Shown here one piece after another: positions 6,356 through 15,634 of a stretch of 35,527 nt of DNA. This DNA comes from a virus (lineage: Duplodnaviria > Heunggongvirae > Uroviricota > Caudoviricetes). Location: positions 1 through 35,527 of IMG/VR virus record IMGVR_UViG_2734482778_000013; one strand, written 5' to 3'. The position numbers and the translations under genes were made by a program. The notes below the pieces were generated by a model that had not been told where the DNA came from, did no database searches, and saw only the letters and a list, made by a program, of their open reading frames with translations. Within the stretch, counting starts at the first letter, position 1, and the number at the start of each line of letters is the position of its first letter.

Positions 6356-6672
6356 AGTATGCCGTTCTCACAAAAAAACCGCTTGCCATGCCGCAATCAG
6401 TCAGGTTACATTTCCGCTGCACCTCATAAAACGGGTGCCGGGATTGGAACCCCGCACACTAACAGAGCGCACAACCGCGCCAGCGGTTTTTTTGTGCGTA
6501 CCGTATCGCCACGTCTTTTTCGCGTCAGAATTATGGTGGGGCGTACAGGGCCAGCATCAGCTGGGCCGGGTCCTCTGTTAGCCGGTAGTTCCAACCCTGT
6601 ACGTCTCACCACCCCGAGCTTGGAACCTCTGGATGGTGAGTTTTCAAAACTGACTAACAGAGAGGCCACACC

Positions 6673-7347: not shown

Positions 7348-10170
7348 ATGACGGCAGAGTACATCAGGGACTGGCAACAACCGCGCCACGCAGTGGGGCG
7401 TGAAGGAACGGGGATCCCCGCTCCTGAATCCGCGCTTTCCTCCTGGCTGGATGCCTACCGGGTAGAGAACGAGCGCCGCCAGGAAATGGCTGATGCGGCG
7501 TTCTCCGCCACGCCGCTGGGCAACCTGATTAATAAAAGCCTGGACGCACAGGAAAAACAGGACAAAACCATCACACTGGCAGGAGACGCCAGAAAACAGG
7601 CACGCGGCGCGGTGGATGAAGCCATGGCCTCGCTGCGCCTGCTGCCGTCCTATCTGCGCGATCCGCTTATTCGCCACCTCTCCTTCCTGCGCAAAAAACA
7701 GGAAGCCGATCGCCGGAAAGGCAAAAAGAGCTGGCAGGCAGAACGCTATGCACGCGGAACCCTGCGCAAGATATTCGATCGCATTAACCGTGCCGACAGT
7801 CGCTGGCTGACACCGGGTTATCGCTCCCTCGCCGGACGTGAACGCCTGGATGATTTGCTTTACCTGCCGCAGCTCAACAAACACCAGATACAGACGCTGG
7901 CCACCATGACGGCGGCGATGTTCAGCAGCACCTTCGAAAAACTCTGCGATGGCTTTGGCGCGACCGATGGCGAGCTGACCATGGATGTAACCCTGAAGGC
8001 GTATCAGATGCTGGCCCGCATGGCGTTACACCTGCACGCCATGCCTCCACATTATGACGCACTGACAACAGACAAAGACCGGAGGAACGAACCGGACACG
8101 GAGCTGCTGCCGGGCGCAATCCTTCGCCTGACCTGTGCGGAATGGTGGAAACGCAAACTGTGGCTGTTACGTTGCGAGTGGAGAGAAGAACAACTCCGCG
8201 CCGCCTGTCTGGTTTCCAGAAAAACATCACCCTATCTGAGCCAGGACGCGTTAAGCGAGTTTCGCGCACAGCGCGAGAAAACACGCGATTTCCTGAAAAG
8301 TTTCATGCTGGAAAATGAAGACGGGTTCACGATTGATCTCGAGACGGTGTATTACGCGGGAGTAAGTAACCCGGTTCACCGTAAGGCAGAAATGATGGCC
8401 ACCATGAAGGGGCTGGAACTTCTGGTCGAAGCCCGTGGCGACAAAGCGGTGTTTCTGACTGTCACCTGCCCGTCAAAATACCACGCCACAACGGAGAACG
8501 GTCATCCGAATCCCAAATGGAACGGGGCCACAATGCGCGACTCCAGCGATTACCTGGTTAACACGTTTTTTGCGGCGGTCCGCAAGAAACTGAATCGCGA
8601 CGGCCTGCGCTGGTATGGCATCCGCACGGTGGAGCCTCACCATGACGGCACAGTGCACTGGCATATGATGGTCTTTGCACATCCGGAAGAAATCGACAGC
8701 ATCGTGGCCATCACCCGCGATATTGCCATTCAGGAAGACCGCCACGAGCTGGGCAATGATATTACTCCGCGCTTTAAGGTGGAGTATGTCGACGGCTCAA
8801 AAGGCACACCGACCAGCTATATCGCCACCTACATCGGAAAAAACCTGGACAGCCGCGCCGTGGATGGCATCGACCCGAAAACGGGCAAGCCACGCGTTGA
8901 CCACGAAACCGGAAAATCAATGGCCGAGAGCGTGGAGCGCGCCATCGGCTGGGCGCGCCTTCACCGCGTCCGCCAGTTCCAGTTCTTTGGCATCCCCTCC
9001 CGTCAGGTGTGGCGTGAACTGCGCCGCCTCGCCAGCCAGATGGCACGCAACCCGGAAGGCCCGCAACGGCTGAAGGATGACGCAATGGATGCGGTTCTTG
9101 CTGCCGCTGATGCCGGGTGTTTTGCCTCCTACATTGAAAAACAGGGTGGCGTACTTGTTCCACGCAAGGACTACCTGATTCGCACCGCCTACGACCTCGC
9201 AGATGAGCTGAACGATTACGGCGAGCAGGGCGTACAGATTTACGGGATCTGGTCACCACTCATCGGGGAATCCTCCCGTGTGTGCACGCATCCGGATAAC
9301 TGGAAGCTGGTAAGACGCAAACCGGAAGCGGAAGACAGCGCCCGCGAAAATGGTTTTGACCTTCAGGGCGGCCCTGCCGCCCCTTGGACTCGTGGCAATA
9401 ACTGTCCCCGTGTACAGGAAACAGGCAACAACGGGACAGAACAGCCGGAAGAACGGCCAGCACCGTGGCCGCAGATTCCTGACGGCGTTGAAGTGAATGA
9501 ATGGATGCGCTCACTGAAACGGCACGAACGCCGGGCGCTGATGCGTTCGCTTCGTGACAAACAGGCAAAAAACAGCAGTGATGAAATGCAAAGCTGGACA
9601 CAGAGCCGCAAACAGCAGCGGCCTTTGCCTGATAACCACGAATTACTCGCTAAAGAATGGCGGGAGTCTGCTGAATCTCTCGGCCTGCATATTGGTGAAC
9701 AGCAGATGCAGCACCTGTTACGGGGCGGCAGTCTGTACGTTGACGGCAGCATCATTGCACCGCAGGGATTTGAAATTGTACGCAAACCGGATACCCGCCC
9801 GGACAGCCGAATCACGCAGCTCTGGCAGCGCCTGAGCCGTAATCACGGCGTAAGCAGCACGGAGATCCGCCATAACCCGGCCGCCAGCTATCTGGAACAG
9901 CTGGGGGCATCAGACCCCGAAGCCGCCGCACGTCTGGCATCCACACTTCAGCAGGACCAGAACACCATGAAAACCCCCGTTACCGTGCTTTCTGACATGC
10001 TGCGCGCCATCCGCGACGCAGAGCATGCACAGAGAATCAGTGAAACCACTGAACGCGCCCGCCGCAAAGCAGACCTGCTGCGGGGTGGCCTGACAAGTGG
10101 AAACAAAAAACAGACAGAAACGGGATTCACAAATCCCGTAAATGAGCAAAAAACGCGCCGCGATATATGA
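7348..10170 (+). CDS. A: Rolling-circle replication initiator endonuclease (P2 gpA family), with long C-terminal extension
   Basis: HUH motif VHWHMMVFAHPEE and paired catalytic tyrosines YIATYIGKN; 940 aa (longer than P2 gpA); position after early operon. Confidence 0.85.
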   Translation: MTAEYIRDWQQPRHAVGREGTGIPAPESALSSWLDAYRVENERRQEMADAAFSATPLGNLINKSLDAQEKQDKTITLAGDARKQARGAVDEAMASLRLLPSYLRDPLIRHLSFLRKKQEADRRKGKKSWQAERYARGTLRKIFDRINRADSRWLTPGYRSLAGRERLDDLLYLPQLNKHQIQTLATMTAAMFSSTFEKLCDGFGATDGELTMDVTLKAYQMLARMALHLHAMPPHYDALTTDKDRRNEPDTELLPGAILRLTCAEWWKRKLWLLRCEWREEQLRAACLVSRKTSPYLSQDALSEFRAQREKTRDFLKSFMLENEDGFTIDLETVYYAGVSNPVHRKAEMMATMKGLELLVEARGDKAVFLTVTCPSKYHATTENGHPNPKWNGATMRDSSDYLVNTFFAAVRKKLNRDGLRWYGIRTVEPHHDGTVHWHMMVFAHPEEIDSIVAITRDIAIQEDRHELGNDITPRFKVEYVDGSKGTPTSYIATYIGKNLDSRAVDGIDPKTGKPRVDHETGKSMAESVERAIGWARLHRVRQFQFFGIPSRQVWRELRRLASQMARNPEGPQRLKDDAMDAVLAAADAGCFASYIEKQGGVLVPRKDYLIRTAYDLADELNDYGEQGVQIYGIWSPLIGESSRVCTHPDNWKLVRRKPEAEDSARENGFDLQGGPAAPWTRGNNCPRVQETGNNGTEQPEERPAPWPQIPDGVEVNEWMRSLKRHERRALMRSLRDKQAKNSSDEMQSWTQSRKQQRPLPDNHELLAKEWRESAESLGLHIGEQQMQHLLRGGSLYVDGSIIAPQGFEIVRKPDTRPDSRITQLWQRLSRNHGVSSTEIRHNPAASYLEQLGASDPEAAARLASTLQQDQNTMKTPVTVLSDMLRAIRDAEHAQRISETTERARRKADLLRGGLTSGNKKQTETGFTNPVNEQKTRRDI

Positions 10171-10217
10171 AGCGCGCATAAAACAGGCAAAAACGGGATT
10201 TAAAAATCCCGTAAACG
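10117..10217. promoter_or_regulatory. Two copies of a ~25-bp palindromic repeat; candidate parC-like centromere/ParR operator (alternative: replication-associated site)
   Basis: AAACGGGATTcacAAATCCCGTAAA at about 10118-10143 and AAACGGGATTtaaAAATCCCGTAAA at about 10191-10216, each an 8-bp-arm inverted repeat; the second overlaps the presumptive parM promoter. Confidence 0.5.
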
Positions 10218-10246
10218 ATTAATTAATCAACATAAGGAAAAGCGAC

Positions 10247-11206
10247 ATGAAAATTTGTATCGACGACGGCTCCACCAACATCAAGCTGGCATGGACTGAG
10301 AACGGCGAACGCCGCAACGCCATCAGCCCGAACAGCTTCAAGTCGGAATGGTCTGCGCCGTTCGGTGGCACGCAGCCCGCGAACTACATGCTTGATGGTG
10401 TGCGCTATGGTTTTGATCCGGTCAGCGATCGCTTTGTCCAGACGACCGACACGCAATACCAGTACAGCGATGTGAATGTCATTGCCATTCATCACGCGCT
10501 GGTCAAATCAGGCATCACGCCACAGGAGGTGGATGTGGTTGTCACCCTGCCACTGAGCGAGTATTTCGACACAAACGCACAGCCGGACATGGCCAACATC
10601 AACCGCAAAAAAGCGAACGTCATGCGCCCGGTGGAGTACCAGAACGGCGAAGCATTCACTATCCGTAACGTACGGGTTATGCCTGAATCCATTCCGGCTG
10701 GCTTTAAAGCACTGGCCGACATGAGTCCGTTTGAATCCCTGCTGATTGTGGATTTGGGCGGAACCACGCTGGATGTGGCAAAGGTTCAGGGGCAGCTGGC
10801 AGGTATCAGCCAGGTGTTTTGCGATCCACACGTAGGCGTTTCTCTGATGGCCGATGCCGTGCTGTCGGTGATGGCCACCAACGGTATGCGCACCAGTCAC
10901 CACATCGCCAATACCATTATCGAACATCGCCACGATGAAGCCTGGCTGCGCCAGCACATCCACAATGACGCGCATTACGCCAGCCTGATGGCAGTTATTC
11001 GTGAAAAGGAAGAAACACTGAAACAACGCGTGATCCGCGCGCTGGCGGGTTTTTCGGGTTACGGGCGGGTGATGGTTGTAGGTGGAGGAGCGGAGATTGT
11101 GGCACCCGCTATCTGCGAAGCCTGCGGAGTTAATGCGACTTTCATCGCGGACGGGGTGCCACAGTTTGCTCTGGTTAATGGGCTGTACGCAATGGACCAG
11201 GAGTAA
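10247..11206 (+). CDS. parM: ParM/StbA-family actin-like segregation ATPase
   Basis: Strong resemblance along the whole length to plasmid R1 ParM as recalled (IDDGSTNIKL..., YSDVNV..HHAL, VMPESIPAG, LIIDLGGTTLD, GGGAE, LVNG); AAGGAAAAG RBS. Confidence 0.85.
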   Translation: MKICIDDGSTNIKLAWTENGERRNAISPNSFKSEWSAPFGGTQPANYMLDGVRYGFDPVSDRFVQTTDTQYQYSDVNVIAIHHALVKSGITPQEVDVVVTLPLSEYFDTNAQPDMANINRKKANVMRPVEYQNGEAFTIRNVRVMPESIPAGFKALADMSPFESLLIVDLGGTTLDVAKVQGQLAGISQVFCDPHVGVSLMADAVLSVMATNGMRTSHHIANTIIEHRHDEAWLRQHIHNDAHYASLMAVIREKEETLKQRVIRALAGFSGYGRVMVVGGGAEIVAPAICEACGVNATFIADGVPQFALVNGLYAMDQE

Positions 11207-11210
11207 ATCA

Positions 11211-11525
11211 ATGACGACACCAACCAGACGGATAAGTTTCTATCTGAAGCCCACCGTCGTCAAGAGCGAACGGGAGGCGTGCAGTTACCTCGACAGCCTG
11301 CCAGCCTCCGAACGCAGCCGCGCACAACGCGCGGCTTTTCTGGCCGGACTGGCTCTTATAAAACGCACCCCCGCGTTGGCGTATTCGCTGGCAGAATGGT
11401 CAGAAGACGAAATACGGATGCCACCGCTACCAGTACAGCCTGAAAAACCGGCGCAACCAGCAGCAGACAGCGCCCCCCATATGCAGCAGGTGAAAAAGAA
11501 TATTCAGGCGTTTTTCCCGAAGTGA
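11211..11525 (+). CDS. parR: ParR/StbB-family centromere-binding adaptor
   Basis: N-terminal RHH-like region ISFYLKPTVVKSEREACSYLDSLPASERSRAQRAAFLAGLAL parallels R1 ParR as recalled; GGAG RBS; directly downstream of parM. Confidence 0.75.
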   Translation: MTTPTRRISFYLKPTVVKSEREACSYLDSLPASERSRAQRAAFLAGLALIKRTPALAYSLAEWSEDEIRMPPLPVQPEKPAQPAADSAPHMQQVKKNIQAFFPK

Positions 11526-11539
11526 AAACAGGAGTAACT

Positions 11540-11827
11540 ATGTCCACCATTACCAAAGAATGGTTACAACGTAAAATCACAGAGTTTAAATCGTGGCGCG
11601 AAGACATCCCGTTCGGTCTTGATGAAGACGATCACAATATGTTAATCGCACTGGAAATCGCACTTGCATCACTGGAAGCAGAGCCAGTGGCATGGATGCA
11701 CGCAAATAATCCTATTGGAATACCGGCGATAACAAGAAGTAAAGATGTTGCAGACAGCTGGCGCTCTAAGGGATGGAATGTATTGCCTCTTTATTCACTG
11801 ACCCGCTCCATCAATTTATGCCATTAA
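11540..11827 (+). CDS. Hypothetical protein (AT-rich cargo)
   Basis: 95-aa ORF from ATG 11540 with AGGAG RBS; track start 11522 is an upstream GTG. Confidence 0.5.
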   Translation: MSTITKEWLQRKITEFKSWREDIPFGLDEDDHNMLIALEIALASLEAEPVAWMHANNPIGIPAITRSKDVADSWRSKGWNVLPLYSLTRSINLCH

Positions 11828-11838
11828 TGGAAGTAATC

Positions 11839-12198
11839 ATGATGAAAGATAATTCCGGAAGCCAGCGTGCATCAGTTGCAGTTATGGTAATGATTAAATT
11901 TGTGAAACAGTACACCGGAAAGCCAATCTCGCTCCGGCAATTAAGCAAAGAAACCGTTTCACTGTCATATCTGGAGCAAATATTCAGATATTTACGGGAA
12001 AGTAGCCTGGTAAAAGCCACACGCGGCCCGGGTGGTGGATATATCCCAACAAAAGAAAATTACAGTGTTGGTGATATTGTCCGGGCAATGAAGTGTTCCG
12101 GATTATATACACAGCACGTTATTCTGGCTGCACTGGATAATATTTCTTTAACCAGCCTGCAGGAAGACACAAATTATCAGTTGTCTGCCATTAAATAA
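11839..12198 (+). CDS. Rrf2-family (IscR/NsrR-like) transcriptional regulator
   Basis: Rrf2 HTH signature ISLRQLSKETVSLSYLEQIFRYLRESSLVKATRGPGGGY; lacks the 3-Cys cluster ligands; low-GC region; GGAAG RBS before ATG 11839. Confidence 0.7.
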   Translation: MMKDNSGSQRASVAVMVMIKFVKQYTGKPISLRQLSKETVSLSYLEQIFRYLRESSLVKATRGPGGGYIPTKENYSVGDIVRAMKCSGLYTQHVILAALDNISLTSLQEDTNYQLSAIK

Positions 12199-12252
12199 GA
12201 AAACCCGGAACGGGTGCGCAAATTCTTTGTGCGCCCGTTCCGGGTTGGACAA
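12199..12252 (-). terminator. Long hairpin terminator downstream of ogr-like gene
   Basis: AACCCGGAACGGGTGCGCAAA-TTC-TTTGTGCGCCCGTTCCGGGTT, about 21-bp stem allowing G-U pairs; on the minus strand it is followed by TTTTCTTATTT. Confidence 0.55.
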
Positions 12253-12266
12253 GCGAAGCGCGTCAG

Positions 12267-12524
12267 CTATCCGGCCTGCAACAACTCCAGAGCCATTTGT
12301 TTTTCTTCCGGACGCATCCGCTCAATCAACAGCTTTAACACACCATTCTCCAGCCCGCTGGGCACCAGTGTGTGCGAGTAGGTCAGATTCATCACCCAGG
12401 TATGTCCGCACTCGAGACGGGTGCAACGGTAATACACATCAGCAAACTGATCGGTTTTCCAGGCTGTTTTCTCAATCACTGCATGTGCACCGCAGCAATG
12501 ACATCGCGCTTTCTGTCTGCGCAT
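12267..12524 (-). CDS. ogr: Ogr/Delta-family zinc-finger late-gene transcriptional activator
   Basis: C-x2-C-x22-C-x4-C arrangement (RCHCC...YYRCTRLECGHTW) matching P2 Ogr spacing as recalled; strong RBS GGGAGG before ATG at 12524; longer ORF-track start at 12593 rejected. Confidence 0.7.
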   Translation of the reverse strand: MRRQKARCHCCGAHAVIEKTAWKTDQFADVYYRCTRLECGHTWVMNLTYSHTLVPSGLENGVLKLLIERMRPEEKQMALELLQAG

Positions 12525-12568
12525 TTTCCACCTCCCGGAACAGCGTTTTACTGCCACCGATTTTACCC

Positions 12569-12588
12569 GCTCTTTCCCCATACCGCAC
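12569..12588. other. Candidate cos (cohesive end) site
   Basis: Minus-strand GTGCGGTATGGGGAAAGAGC shares the GGGGAAAG core and flanks with P2/186 cos as recalled; located at the 3' end of portal gene Q as in P2. Confidence 0.3.
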
Positions 12589-12589
12589 A

Positions 12590-13624
12590 TCACTCCATGG
12601 GTTCATCAAAATCAAGAATAAATTTCACCTCCCCCAGTCGTCTGATATCCGGGTCGCTGTTGATCCCCTCCATAATCAGGCGGCGCATCGGGATAACCTC
12701 ATCCCTGTAATATGCCTCGCGGGATTTCAGTGGGTCACCAAGCCCGGCCGTATTTGCGGGAATGATGCCGGCAAGTCCGGGTGGGAAACGGTGCGCAACG
12801 AGCTGATCCTGGGCACTGATGGTTTTTATATTCAGGAACTCATCTTTTGTACCTGAATCCCCGATAGGGATCACCTTAACGCCTTCTTTGTCTCCGCCCG
12901 GTATATTGATAAACATGGATTTAAAGTTGCCCGCCCCTTTTGACGCCTCTATCTTTTTACGGAATTCCGCCTCGAGCTCGGGATCCATGTCCGGGTCAGT
13001 GGAATACAGGATATAACCAAGATGTGCGCCGTTCTTGTAATACTTGCGGCGAAAGCGGGTGGCATCCACATTCAGCATGGCAGATTCCATCCCGTGAATA
13101 TAATCCGGGACACCGTAAACCTGCTGTTGTGGGTCATAAATTGCCACGAACACCACTTCGCCTGGCGGGTAAACGAGATCTTCCAGTGCCGCCTGCACAA
13201 TCACCGTGCCACCTTCGTTGTTGCGCCGCAGGTACAGAGAAGGCAACGTATGCAGGCGCACCACCCGCCCGAAGCCATTGCGCACTTTAAGCAGCCCCAT
13301 ATCCCCGAATATCAGCAGATTGGTCACCGCTGCCGCCATGGCGGCGTGTGTCATACCACCACCACCCCGAAAACCCTGCATGATCATATTGACGCGCGCA
13401 CGCAATACCGCGCCGTGATACGGTGCGATATTGGCCAACATAGCGAGATCCATGCGCTCAATGGGCGGCGTGTACCAGCCGTTATAGCCATCCCAGAGCG
13501 AGCCGTAATAACAGCCCCATGCAGCGACTGGTTCCGGGTCACCAAATTCAATAAACGTCATTTTGCTGGCTGTTTTTTTTGCCACGCCATCGTGTAGCAC
13601 GGGGGATTTTTTCTTTTTACTCAT
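12590..13624 (-). CDS. Q: Portal protein (P2 gpQ-like)
   Basis: 344 aa, same length as P2 Q; 8-nt overlap with terminase gene; synteny Q-P | O-N-M-L. Confidence 0.9.
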   Translation of the reverse strand: MSKKKKSPVLHDGVAKKTASKMTFIEFGDPEPVAAWGCYYGSLWDGYNGWYTPPIERMDLAMLANIAPYHGAVLRARVNMIMQGFRGGGGMTHAAMAAAVTNLLIFGDMGLLKVRNGFGRVVRLHTLPSLYLRRNNEGGTVIVQAALEDLVYPPGEVVFVAIYDPQQQVYGVPDYIHGMESAMLNVDATRFRRKYYKNGAHLGYILYSTDPDMDPELEAEFRKKIEASKGAGNFKSMFINIPGGDKEGVKVIPIGDSGTKDEFLNIKTISAQDQLVAHRFPPGLAGIIPANTAGLGDPLKSREAYYRDEVIPMRRLIMEGINSDPDIRRLGEVKFILDFDEPME

Positions 13625-15404
13625 CTGACAGGATCCATGTTGATTTGCGCTTGTGCTTATAGTTCAGAGGTTCATTACTTGCGGCATGAGCTATGGCAAA
13701 GAAGATGTCAGCGTGCCCGGTTTCTTCGCTGCGTTCGGCGGTGAAAGTGACTTTATTGCCACTGTTAGTGGACTCCTGACGAATGGCCAGGAACGATGCC
13801 GGAATATCTGTGGCTTCTTCATCCCACTCAATACGGTTGGCGTAAATCAGATCCAGCATCTTCATCACCAGGCGGTTTTTGGATTCAACGCTGTAATGAA
13901 TGGCCACTGTTTCACGGCGGGCAAATCCCTGGACCAGCTCAAAGACACCGTAGCCAAGACCGGTGACGTCAATGCCGATAAATGTCATGTTATAGCGCGC
14001 CTTAATGCTGCGGATACGCTCTGCCATAAACTGGAATGACATGCTGCGCCAGTGGTGTTTTTCCAGCACGCGGAATCGTTCTGCCGCAACCAGCGGCGGT
14101 GCCAGTACCACAAACGTGGCGTTATCGCCGGAGCGCGCAGGGTCAAAGCCACCCCACACCTCACAGTTACCAAATGGCATGGGCTCTTCCGGGTGAAAGT
14201 CCTCCCACGTACTGACATCAACACCACAGCGCACAAGGTCATCAAATTTAAAGACGCTCTCTTTGTCGTCCACAAACACGCACATAAACAGCATATTGAA
14301 CGCTGTTTCGTTGTACCGTTCGCGCAGCTCGTTGATGTCAGCAAGGTTAAAGCCGCCGGCAATGGCATCTTCCAGCGTAACCACATAGCGCCACTGACCA
14401 TCCGGGCATTCGCGCCCGCCATCGCGCAGCTCATCAAAGGACGGAAACTCAACCCCTTTTCGTTTCGGATCGCCTTTGCGCCATTCATCGCCAGACCAGA
14501 ACGGATAGCCCTGATGGGTTTTGGTTGACGGCGTGGAGAAGTAGGTAATGCGCCAGTGCGAGTGGGTGGCCATACCGGACGCCACTTCATTGAGGCGACG
14601 AAAGCCGGGGATCCACAGATATTCGTCAATGTACAGGTGGCCGCTGTTTGACTGCGCCGTGTTACTGTTGGTCGCCAGAAAATACAGTTCAGCCAGATTA
14701 CTTAACTTAACCGGGTTGCCTTTAATGGGAATGCCAAATTCCGTCTGTGCAATCTTAACGATATAGGTGCGGAACACTTCGGCCTGACGTTTTGATGCCG
14801 ATAAAAATATCTGTGTGTCGCCGGTTAATACCGCATCTTCAAATGCCTCAAACGCGAAGTAATACGTCGCCCCAATCTGGCGCGATTTAAGCAGGTTGCG
14901 TACACGACGGAATTTGTTTTCACGCAGGTGCAACTGATAAGCGAACAGTTTTTTGGTAAACGGCTCAAAACTTTCAGCAGTCAGCCCGGAAACGTCATTA
15001 GCTTTACGGGGGCGCTCTTTCTTACCTGCACCTTTTTCTCCGCGTTCTTCTTTTCCATAACGACCAGGCTGAGGAATGTCCGCCCCCATTCGTGCAATCT
15101 CAGCCATTCGCTCCGTGTGCTTGTTTCTGACCGACATCAGTTTGACGTGGTGGCCAATCAGGCGATCGAGTTCATCGTGTTCTTCCGGCGTTTTATGGTC
15201 ACGCTCCGCCAGTACAGCGAGACGCCGGGCGATGACATCCTCCACGCCCTCAGTATTAAGCTGTGTGTACCACTCAAACTTTGTCGCCCAGTAATAAACA
15301 ATTCGTGGGCTGTTCAGTCCGAGCTTCTTTTGTATTTCTTTTGGGGTGTGCCTTTTCAGATAGAGTGATTTTGCTGCGGCAATAACTTCATCAGAATAAG
15401 CCAT
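13617..15404 (-). CDS. P: Terminase large subunit (P2 gpP-like)
   Basis: 595 aa; position and overlap with Q; divergent from O. Confidence 0.9.
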   Translation of the reverse strand: MAYSDEVIAAAKSLYLKRHTPKEIQKKLGLNSPRIVYYWATKFEWYTQLNTEGVEDVIARRLAVLAERDHKTPEEHDELDRLIGHHVKLMSVRNKHTERMAEIARMGADIPQPGRYGKEERGEKGAGKKERPRKANDVSGLTAESFEPFTKKLFAYQLHLRENKFRRVRNLLKSRQIGATYYFAFEAFEDAVLTGDTQIFLSASKRQAEVFRTYIVKIAQTEFGIPIKGNPVKLSNLAELYFLATNSNTAQSNSGHLYIDEYLWIPGFRRLNEVASGMATHSHWRITYFSTPSTKTHQGYPFWSGDEWRKGDPKRKGVEFPSFDELRDGGRECPDGQWRYVVTLEDAIAGGFNLADINELRERYNETAFNMLFMCVFVDDKESVFKFDDLVRCGVDVSTWEDFHPEEPMPFGNCEVWGGFDPARSGDNATFVVLAPPLVAAERFRVLEKHHWRSMSFQFMAERIRSIKARYNMTFIGIDVTGLGYGVFELVQGFARRETVAIHYSVESKNRLVMKMLDLIYANRIEWDEEATDIPASFLAIRQESTNSGNKVTFTAERSEETGHADIFFAIAHAASNEPLNYKHKRKSTWILSDE

Positions 15405-15634
15405 AAACTACCTGTGGAATTTATTTTAATGGGTTTTCACCTTTTTTCGGTTCGTTCCGTAACGTTCCGTAATATCCCATTATTTGCCGCAGGCATTTTT
15501 TTAACGATTATCTGTTTTCGGTATTTTTCGGATATATGCGCATATCCGAAAGTACCGGAAATTAATCAGGTGACGGCTTTTTTATTTCCCACTTAAATAA
15601 CGCTCAGTTAATTTTTATCAGCGGGTTAATTCAG
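15405..15634. promoter_or_regulatory. Divergent late promoter region (P and O operons) with perfect 24-bp palindrome and tandem repeat
   Basis: Perfect palindrome TTCGGATATATGCGCATATCCGAA at 15527-15550; tandem CGTTCCGTAA x2 at 15452-15471; AT-rich. Confidence 0.55.

Follow-up and report, generated by a model that had tools for sequence, protein, structure and literature searches.

A short IscR-like Rrf2 protein lacking the iron-sulfur cluster site, encoded in an exchangeable cassette of a P2-like prophage of Escherichia coli

The stretch of DNA analysed here, called the window, is the whole of the IMG/VR viral record IMGVR_UViG_2734482778_000013 (positions 1 to 35,527, i.e., 35,527 nucleotides, nt). 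It is a P2-like prophage of Escherichia coli with the parMR genes. We focus on two open reading frames (ORFs) located between parR and ogr: ORF1, of 95 amino acids (aa), and ORF2, of 119 aa. ORF2 encodes a regulator of the Rrf2 family which is closest to IscR, which has lost the loop that bears the ligands of an iron-sulfur (Fe-S) cluster, and which keeps the residues that IscR uses to read DNA. Both ORFs form a cassette that is replaced by other genes in related prophages. This two-ORF layout, first proposed from the sequence alone, agrees with the coordinates and with the Pfam assignments of the neighbours. A copy that is 99.7% identical over window positions 11400-12300 adjoins pheA/pheL in E. 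coli STEC313. There, the annotated order is integrase, repressor, cox, small early genes, replication endonuclease (gpA), ParM, ParR-like protein, "hypothetical protein", "RrF2 family transcriptional regulator", ogr/Delta, portal and terminase. In the window, the locus is made up as follows.

7348-10170: gpA (replication gene A).
10247-11206, + strand: parM (Pfam StbA_N/ParM_N).
11211-11525, + strand: parR (Pfam Plasmid_stab_B, E=9e-24).
11519-12199, + strand: exchangeable cassette, i.e., ORF1, ORF2 and short spacers, delimited by comparison with same-lineage prophages holding other cargo.
11540-11827, + strand: ORF1, 95 aa (open reading frame and its translation).
11654-11691, + strand: ORF1 hinge, encoding ...IALASLEAEPVAW..., repeated in paralogues and crossover point of the chimera described below.
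11839-12198, + strand: ORF2, 119 aa (Pfam Rrf2).
12200-12266, no strand assigned: hairpin element (anchor, 67 nt), with a hairpin of 21 base pairs at 12202-12246.
12267-12593, - strand: ogr, Ogr/Delta zinc finger of the late activator type (Pfam Ogr_Delta, E=1.4e-12), convergent with ORF2.
12590-13624, - strand: portal gene Q, after ogr.

The parM and parR genes are read in the same direction as ORF1, and only 14 nt separate the parR stop from the ORF1 start. The GC content of 11540-12198 is 0.426, against 0.519 for the whole window, which places this segment among the lowest 1.3% of 659-nt windows. At third codon positions (GC3), ORF1 and ORF2 reach 0.43 and 0.40, against 0.59-0.66 in parM, parR, ogr and Q. 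The lower GC content that had been noticed by eye relative to the flanking genes is thus borne out. Other gene callers use an alternative start of ORF2 at 11827, giving a protein of 123 aa (P0001). At this point the sequence TAATG (11825-11829) makes the ORF1 stop overlap an in-frame ORF2 ATG, 12 nt upstream of the annotated start, which suggests a possible translational coupling of the two ORFs.

The sequence-only reading had assigned the 119-aa protein to the Rrf2 family on the basis of an IscR/NsrR-type helix-turn-helix (HTH), and the profile search agrees with it. Indeed, ORF2 matches the Pfam Rrf2 profile (PF02082) with an E-value of 2.2e-13 and 50.9 bits, the gathering cut-off being 30. 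This match runs from residue 8 to residue 88 of ORF2 and covers positions 2-85 of the 132 of the profile, i.e., the winged HTH only. With the Rrf2 superfamily model TIGR00738, the score (53.5 bits) stays under the cut-off of 73.3, since ORF2 lacks the C-terminal half. The best NCBIfam model is that of IscR (TIGR02010, 59.3 bits, E=3e-16), ahead of the Rrf2 superfamily, CymR and NsrR; all equivalog scores are far under their cut-offs (207.55 for TIGR02010; 275 for the IscR equivalog NF008110, where ORF2 obtains 46.3 bits). ORF2 also matches PHROG 24072, a group of unknown function, over its full length. Among PDB sequences, its best match is E. coli IscR (4HF0), with an identical recognition helix (SLSYLEQ) and an identical wing (RGPGGGY). 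The AlphaFold2 (AF2) model of ORF2, with a pLDDT of 88.7, leads to the same protein: the top Foldseek match is apo-IscR 4HF0 (TM 0.72), the top matches are 36 Rrf2 structures, and the next fold, MarR, comes at TM 0.41. The predicted structure displays the Rrf2 fold, a winged HTH followed by a C-terminal helical dimerisation region whose C-terminal helix is shortened.

The region of IscR that holds the cluster is lacking in ORF2. The three-cysteine site of the Fe-S-sensing Rrf2 regulators is absent, as had been noticed at first sight: the protein has one cysteine (C86) and one histidine (H93), and the alignment places a deletion over the ligand loop. This deletion, of around 22 residues and covering IscR C92/C98/C104/H107, is found in every member of the short sub-family to which ORF2 belongs. 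These proteins also lack the C-terminal tail of IscR (around 35 residues in the case of ORF2, whose dimerisation helix is in addition roughly halved). Over residues 8-84, the IscR sequence used here is consistent with the alignment to PDB 4HF0. Since the segment with the cluster ligands is missing, ORF2 cannot sense the Fe-S status of the cell.

On the other hand, the DNA-reading head is conserved. The short sub-family shows no variation at S41, S43, Y44, E46 and G63-Y68, and at least 90% of its members have Q47 and R62. Judged from the alignment, S43, E46, Q47 and R62 of ORF2 correspond to S40, E43, Q44 and R59 of IscR, and IscR Y41 is retained too. In IscR, the type-2 site is read by S40, by E43, which touches the CC bases, and by Q44, and R59 enters the minor groove, while NsrR and RisR have other residues at these positions (PMC5411485, PMC9973013). 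Moreover, type-2 site binding and gene regulation persist in apo-IscR and in the C92A/C98A/C104A mutant (PMC4055776). The description that fits ORF2 best is thus that of an IscR without its sensor, in which the loop is deleted and the conserved positions are the reading residues of IscR.

The closest known system is thus the apo form of E. coli IscR, including the apo-locked C92A form (4HF0/4HF1), with which ORF2 has in common the fold, the recognition helix, the wing and the reading residues. Even the sizes are comparable, with 120 modelled residues in apo-IscR and 119 aa in ORF2. The genetic context differs: IscR is encoded upstream of iscSUA, as the first gene of iscRSUA that it autoregulates via type-1 sites, whereas ORF2 is encoded in a phage early operon, between parR and ogr. 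A second point of comparison is CymR of Bacillus and Staphylococcus, a characterised Rrf2 regulator which, like ORF2, has no three-cysteine site and no Fe-S cluster, and whose structures 2Y75 and 3T8R are among the structural matches of ORF2. However, CymR is chromosomal and keeps a full-length C-terminal domain (around 138 aa), whereas ORF2 is short and phage-borne, and the NCBIfam CymR model gives ORF2 49 bits for a cut-off of 195. The recognition helix (LSEHYLEQL) and the wing (RGAYGGY) of CymR also differ from those of ORF2, and CymR is controlled through CysK.

ORF2 is under purifying selection and is maintained. Between the E. coli copy and that of Salmonella Newport (locus L014), we counted 9 synonymous and 3 non-synonymous differences, i.e., a dN/dS of 0.09, compared to 0.13 for parM. 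The reading frame is intact in all of the 13 loci compared.

To delimit the sub-family, an exhaustive HMMER search was run over 1.8 billion cluster representatives and returned 1740 Rrf2 relatives. Only around 15-20 clusters (at 50% identity) align across the whole of ORF2, and they measure 95-123 aa, save one cluster of 160 aa. In IMG/VR, relatives of ORF2 occur in 110 viral contigs, and the 47 distinct members that we extracted measure 104-129 aa and have 0-1 cysteine after the wing. This last set was chosen by motif and is usable for lengths and cysteine counts only; residue invariance within it is partly circular because the loci were picked with those motifs, and the conservation described above rests on the motif-independent HMMER set. 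The view that Rrf2 regulators are unusual phage cargo stands as regards GenBank, where just 18 of 50,697 phage records match at E<=1e-3, and has to be tempered by the short sub-family itself, with its 110 IMG/VR contigs and its dedicated PHROG (24072).

All the recovered contexts of short Rrf2 genes are temperate phages or prophages of Enterobacterales, and in each of them the gene is co-oriented with the early lytic operon. Two placements occur in lambdoid prophages. In L002 and L006-L008, the gene directly follows the replication genes and a gene for a DUF1627 winged-helix protein. In Citrobacter phage Chris1, Klebsiella prophage-plasmids and Mixta (L003-L005), it is found on the PL side, flanked by the repressor region and exo/int. 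This placement argues for an early or host-directed regulation rather than for a classical lysogenic-conversion gene. In three of the lambdoid loci (L006/L007 5297-6551 and L008 5348-6533), we also observed that the DUF1627 gene immediately precedes the short Rrf2 gene, with a stop/start overlap. In L006/L007, the gene after Rrf2 encodes 75 aa and matches the restriction-alleviation protein Lar below threshold (21.8 bits for a cut-off of 28.6). DUF1627, short Rrf2 and Lar-like genes may constitute a conserved small module of early accessory genes.

The cassette occupies the gpA-gpQ hotspot known from P2. Genes come in the order A, parM, parR, ORF1, ORF2, ogr and Q, and related prophages have other genes at this place. 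Rousset et al. (2022, PMC9122126) describe this locus as rich in defence systems and as also holding partition systems and toxins. Their supplementary hotspot table includes this exact arrangement with the same protein accessions, and, in the text consulted, the ORF1-ORF2 arrangement does not appear among the systems tested. Our survey supports the variable hotspot that had been suspected here: parMR is found in P2-like prophages of 1304 of the 5426 complete E. coli genomes (24%; 1442 of 1444 places being chromosomal), while the ORF1-ORF2 cargo is found in around 37-45 of these 5426 genomes. In other strains, the place downstream of parR is occupied by unrelated small genes or insertion sequences, or has undergone deletions, and other cargo was identified in O104:H4, UTI89, H10407 and same-lineage strains. 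As for parMR itself, an actin-type plasmid partition system in an integrating phage, a plasmid-like maintenance has been suggested (Rousset et al., PMC9122126).

The borders of the cassette come from its closest relatives. In the narrower lineage with this portal and the adjacent ogr, here called the portal/ogr lineage (43 genomes), 37 have ORF2 and 5 records have other cargo; these 5 match the window only from the base after the ORF2 stop onward, and their slot holds an unrelated 95-aa gene. In L019 and L020, the homology with the window stops at 11518 and restarts at 12200, so that the exchangeable cassette is 11519-12199. Because it starts only 21 nt before the ORF1 ATG, the cassette seems to bring no promoter of its own. 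A promoter and terminator scan also detected neither a + strand terminator nor a promoter-like site between parR and ORF1, and the one weak promoter match inside ORF1 (9/12, 11550-11577) is no better than chance. As to the moron suggested at first, an autonomous cargo with flanking promoter and terminator, the cassette shows a strong hairpin after ORF2 (described below) along with this lack of a convincing promoter. Between lineages, sequence similarity mostly breaks in the 3' third of parR (window ~11360-11410).

The right border corresponds to the hairpin element 12200-12266, which is 98.5-100% identical in all relatives, against 88-100% for ogr. Its hairpin (12202-12246) has a folding energy of -43.3 kcal/mol as RNA (z=-6.9) and, with its T-run, forms a terminator-like site on the - strand. 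It is likely the terminator of ogr and possibly also that of the + strand operon. Cargo is swapped to the left of this element, and extra cargo is inserted to its right in Salmonella L014 and in L019. In Salmonella Newport (L014 5946-6575), a second insertion point of the slot, between the hairpin element and ogr, contains a - strand gene for a predicted membrane protein of 209 aa, with a sub-threshold DUF6338 match and no PADLOC match. A stretch of 68 nt that is around 81% identical to the element is also present in 53 small mobilizable Col-type plasmids, 3' of a gene adjoining mobA. The element may be a shared terminator only, or serve as an anchor for recombination or as one close to cos; the window contains no occurrence of the 19-mer of P2 cos.

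Upstream of the slot, a 42-nt unit occurs in two copies, 73 nt apart (window 10104-10145 and 10177-10218), in the last codons of gene A and in the spacer between A and parM. Each unit holds a 20-bp palindrome, ACGGGATT(N4)AAATCCCGT. These repeats are candidates for a parC-like centromere or a ParR operator, and perhaps for the promoter of parMR and the cassette. Further upstream of gene A, two Rfam models score above their gathering thresholds, isrK (6419-6493, 72 bits) and C4 antisense RNA (6529-6616, 78.5 bits); they represent an antisense-RNA immunity element of the P1/P7 type within a P2-like early region.

The ORF1 protein had been considered an orphan, and this does not hold. It matches PHROGs 660 (E=3e-18), 60 (E=9e-17), 5117 and 3323, and has 274 homologues among enterobacterial prophage proteins, under names that include Eaa, DUF551-containing protein and, wrongly, "valyl-tRNA synthetase". 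Its DNA is 68-74% identical to genes of the ea region of lambdoid phages. ORF1 has no sequence match in Pfam (E<=1), NCBIfam or the PDB. Its AF2 model (pLDDT 84) shows a helical hairpin and then a small alpha/beta module, and a fold search of the PDB with this model found no match. ORF1 is a mosaic of an N-terminal helical hairpin, a hinge (ALASLEAEPVAW) and a small alpha/beta module. Its modules recur in many combinations in lambdoid early proteins, where DUF551 often follows. In the family alignment, the hinge residues A41-E48 are invariant or nearly so, which makes the N-terminal module and the hinge those of Eaa/DUF551-type proteins. With the Eaa, Ead-Ea22 and DUF551 proteins encoded in lambdoid early (ea, nin) regions, ORF1 has in common this N-terminal helical module, the ALASLEAEPVAW hinge, the module '...GIPAITRSK..SW.SKGW.V.PLY' and the same mosaic exchange at the hinge. 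Unlike them, it belongs to a P2-like phage and not to a lambdoid one, and it contains no DUF551 (PF04448), ending at the point where longer homologues run on into this domain.

The origin of this mosaic can be read from the relatives L017 and L018, which have three genes (137, 95 and 88 aa) in place of ORF1. Window 10900-11691 matches L017 3655-4446 and window 11654-12700 matches L017 5094-6140, the two segments overlapping at the hinge. In translation, the N-terminal half of ORF1 comes from the 137-aa gene and its C-terminal half from the 88-aa gene. ORF1 is therefore a chimera, in which parts of two paralogues meet at the repeated hinge (11654-11691), and this chimeric Eaa-type nature appears to be undescribed in the literature searched. 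Compared to Salmonella L014, ORF1 shows 3 synonymous and 8 non-synonymous differences (dN/dS 0.72) and is under weak constraint. The idea of ORF1 and ORF2 as a fixed pair had to be abandoned, since the number of Eaa-like genes ahead of ORF2 varies from one to three in relatives (L017, L018), and since an Eaa-like gene can also occur when ORF2 is absent. The latter case is L021, a distant member of the lineage with an Eaa-like gene by ogr and no Rrf2 gene, and because of it we consider the two ORFs as neighbours and not as an obligate pair. A degraded copy of the prophage was also observed in E. coli STEC306 (L009 5294-5548): gene A is frameshifted, and a deletion that has taken away ORF2, ogr and all of the head and tail module fuses the first ~60 codons of ORF1 to a tail-fibre gene.

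We also searched the window for a target of ORF2, using the IscR type-2 motif xxWWWWCCxYAxxxxxxxTRxGGWWWWxx (from PMC4055776). The core pattern occurs twice, for 1.55 occurrences expected. With three mismatches, 42 matches were obtained for 22 expected, an excess that we do not interpret, the pattern being W-rich and the composition of the window uneven. The sole good match, with one mismatch, is TAAGCCATAAACTACCTGTGGAATT at 15397-15421, located in the divergent P/O late-promoter region, where it and the terminase start codon overlap. We rejected it as an ORF2 target: a match of this kind appears in 15% of shuffles, and the site is missing from STEC313, which has the Rrf2 gene, and present in L019, which lacks it. 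It is probably a chance match since it does not co-vary with ORF2 in the relatives.

The existence of this gene is not new, as it is annotated "Rrf2 family" by NCBI and is included in a PHROG and in the hotspot catalogue. What appears new, and undescribed in the literature searched, is a coherent, phage-restricted sub-family of IscR proteins in which the sensor is deleted and the reading residues are kept. From these sequence features, we tentatively favour, as possible but short of probable, that ORF2 acts as a cluster-independent mimic of apo-IscR on type-2-like sites and is the functional part of an apparently promoterless accessory cassette. The probable source of the cassette is the early AT-rich part of a lambdoid phage genome. 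ORF2 is an IscR-derived winged HTH, with the [2Fe-2S] loop and the C-terminal tail removed and the reading residues retained. In this reading, it would be produced together with parMR and the early operon, and would bind type-2-like sites (CC...GG half-sites) constitutively, without cluster sensing. The expression of IscR-controlled host genes, or of some phage site, would then be altered irrespective of the Fe-S status. ORF1 would not be mechanistically tied to this action.

As to what the phage may gain, a CRISPRi screen with T7 offers leads rather than evidence: knock-down of isc lowers the fitness of the phage and knock-down of iscR raises it (bioRxiv 10.1101/2024.04.20.590424). The same work mentions the control exerted by IscR on RnlAB, a toxin-antitoxin defence system.

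Several points weigh against an apo-IscR mimic. The motif scan of the window and the comparison with the relatives revealed no conserved IscR-type site in the phage, and the literature searched contains no paper or experiment on phage-encoded short Rrf2 or IscR-like proteins. In the alignment and in the AF2 model, the dimerisation helix of ORF2 is about half as long as that of IscR; because of this, dimer formation and a high-affinity binding of palindromic sites are not assured. Furthermore, lysogens too could express the gene if the parMR promoter is an autoregulated one, and the enrichment of the gpA-gpQ hotspot in defence genes (PMC9122126) favours another kind of role.

The lack of a conserved IscR-type site in the phage also weighs on a first alternative, in which ORF2 is a phage-internal regulator acting at an operator of the prophage (parC/parMR, the ogr or late promoters, or its own operon) and tuning partition, replication or late timing. 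Such a role would suit a small winged HTH of dimeric type whose gene belongs to the early operon, is convergent with ogr, the gene of the late activator, and is present in 37 of the 43 genomes of the portal/ogr lineage, and the palindromic repeats upstream of parM could provide an operator. However, same-lineage prophages manage without ORF2, and its homologues are found in unrelated architectures (lambdoid PR side, PL side, P2-like) with no obvious common target. The reading residues are also those of the host IscR and do not reflect a diverged specificity. We regard this explanation as rather unlikely.

Defence is the role that the slot itself brings to mind. ORF2, with or without ORF1, would be, like other cargo of this hotspot (old, tin and others), a prophage-expressed defence or superinfection-exclusion gene, acting for instance by repressing genes of incoming phages or by triggering a host response. 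The cassette resembles the P2 gpA-gpQ cargo (old, tin and what Rousset et al. 2022 report) by its slot, its turnover in close relatives and its base composition, foreign to that of the neighbouring genes. It figures in the hotspot table of PMC9122126, as noted above, and a parMR promoter could ensure expression in the lysogen. Yet, unlike that cargo, it shows neither a recognised defence domain nor, seemingly, its own promoter, and ORF1, ORF2, ParM and ParR have no match in PADLOC-DB 2.0 at E<=1, which places none of them in a known defence system. PADLOC gives almost no matches on the alternative cargo of the slot either. Neither protein contains an enzymatic or effector domain, the products being just a predicted DNA-binding protein of 119 aa and a mosaic protein of small size. 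Moreover, the relatives of ORF2 occupy early lytic operons of lambdoid phages, which are not typical positions for genes expressed in lysogeny, and the hotspot also holds non-defence cargo such as partition systems and toxins (PMC9122126). On balance, a defence function seems to us unlikely.

A third possibility starts from the dimerisation helix. ORF2 would not bind DNA alone and would be a dominant-negative partner, inactivating the host IscR or another Rrf2 protein by heterodimer formation and derepressing isc. Its C-terminal segment (..VILAALDNISLTSLQ..) can be aligned to the last part of the dimerisation helix of IscR (..LTGFLNNITLGELV..), and the gain of T7 fitness upon iscR knock-down, with its loss upon knock-down of isc genes, would be in line with such an effect. 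However, only around half of this helix is left, and a pure poison subunit would have no need for the strictly conserved reading residues and wing, which makes this mechanism very doubtful. Lastly, the deletion chimera and dN/dS of ORF1 (0.72) and the rapid turnover of the slot could denote a hitch-hiker without function, a piece of lambdoid DNA that decays in a recombination hotspot, which the selection on ORF2 (dN/dS 0.09, with 9 synonymous and 3 non-synonymous differences), its intact frame in 13 of 13 loci and the functional residues kept in around 15-20 clusters at 50% identity make highly improbable.

Coming back to the apo-IscR mimic, its wider form would be that P2-like and lambdoid temperate phages of enterobacteria carry a dedicated, sensor-stripped IscR which, early in infection or induction, would occupy IscR type-2 sites and hold the IscR regulon in a single state, a proposal that we consider speculative and improbable as it stands. 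Should ORF2 prove to be no more than inert cargo or a regulator internal to the phage, the finding would be an ordinary one. The sub-family has the advantage of being small, with clear borders, and of being readily tested: the protein has 119 aa, candidate sites are known, and IscR reporter strains exist. IscR controls Fe-S cluster biogenesis, and hence respiration, tRNA thiolation and several stress and virulence genes. An IscR mimic, if it proves true, could secure Fe-S and tRNA-thiolation capacity for the phage, or silence IscR-controlled defence such as RnlAB, and would constitute a new class of phage host-takeover or anti-defence factor. In that case, a cluster-blind IscR of phage origin, still able to read IscR sites, would provide a simple means to uncouple the IscR regulon from the physiology of the cell.

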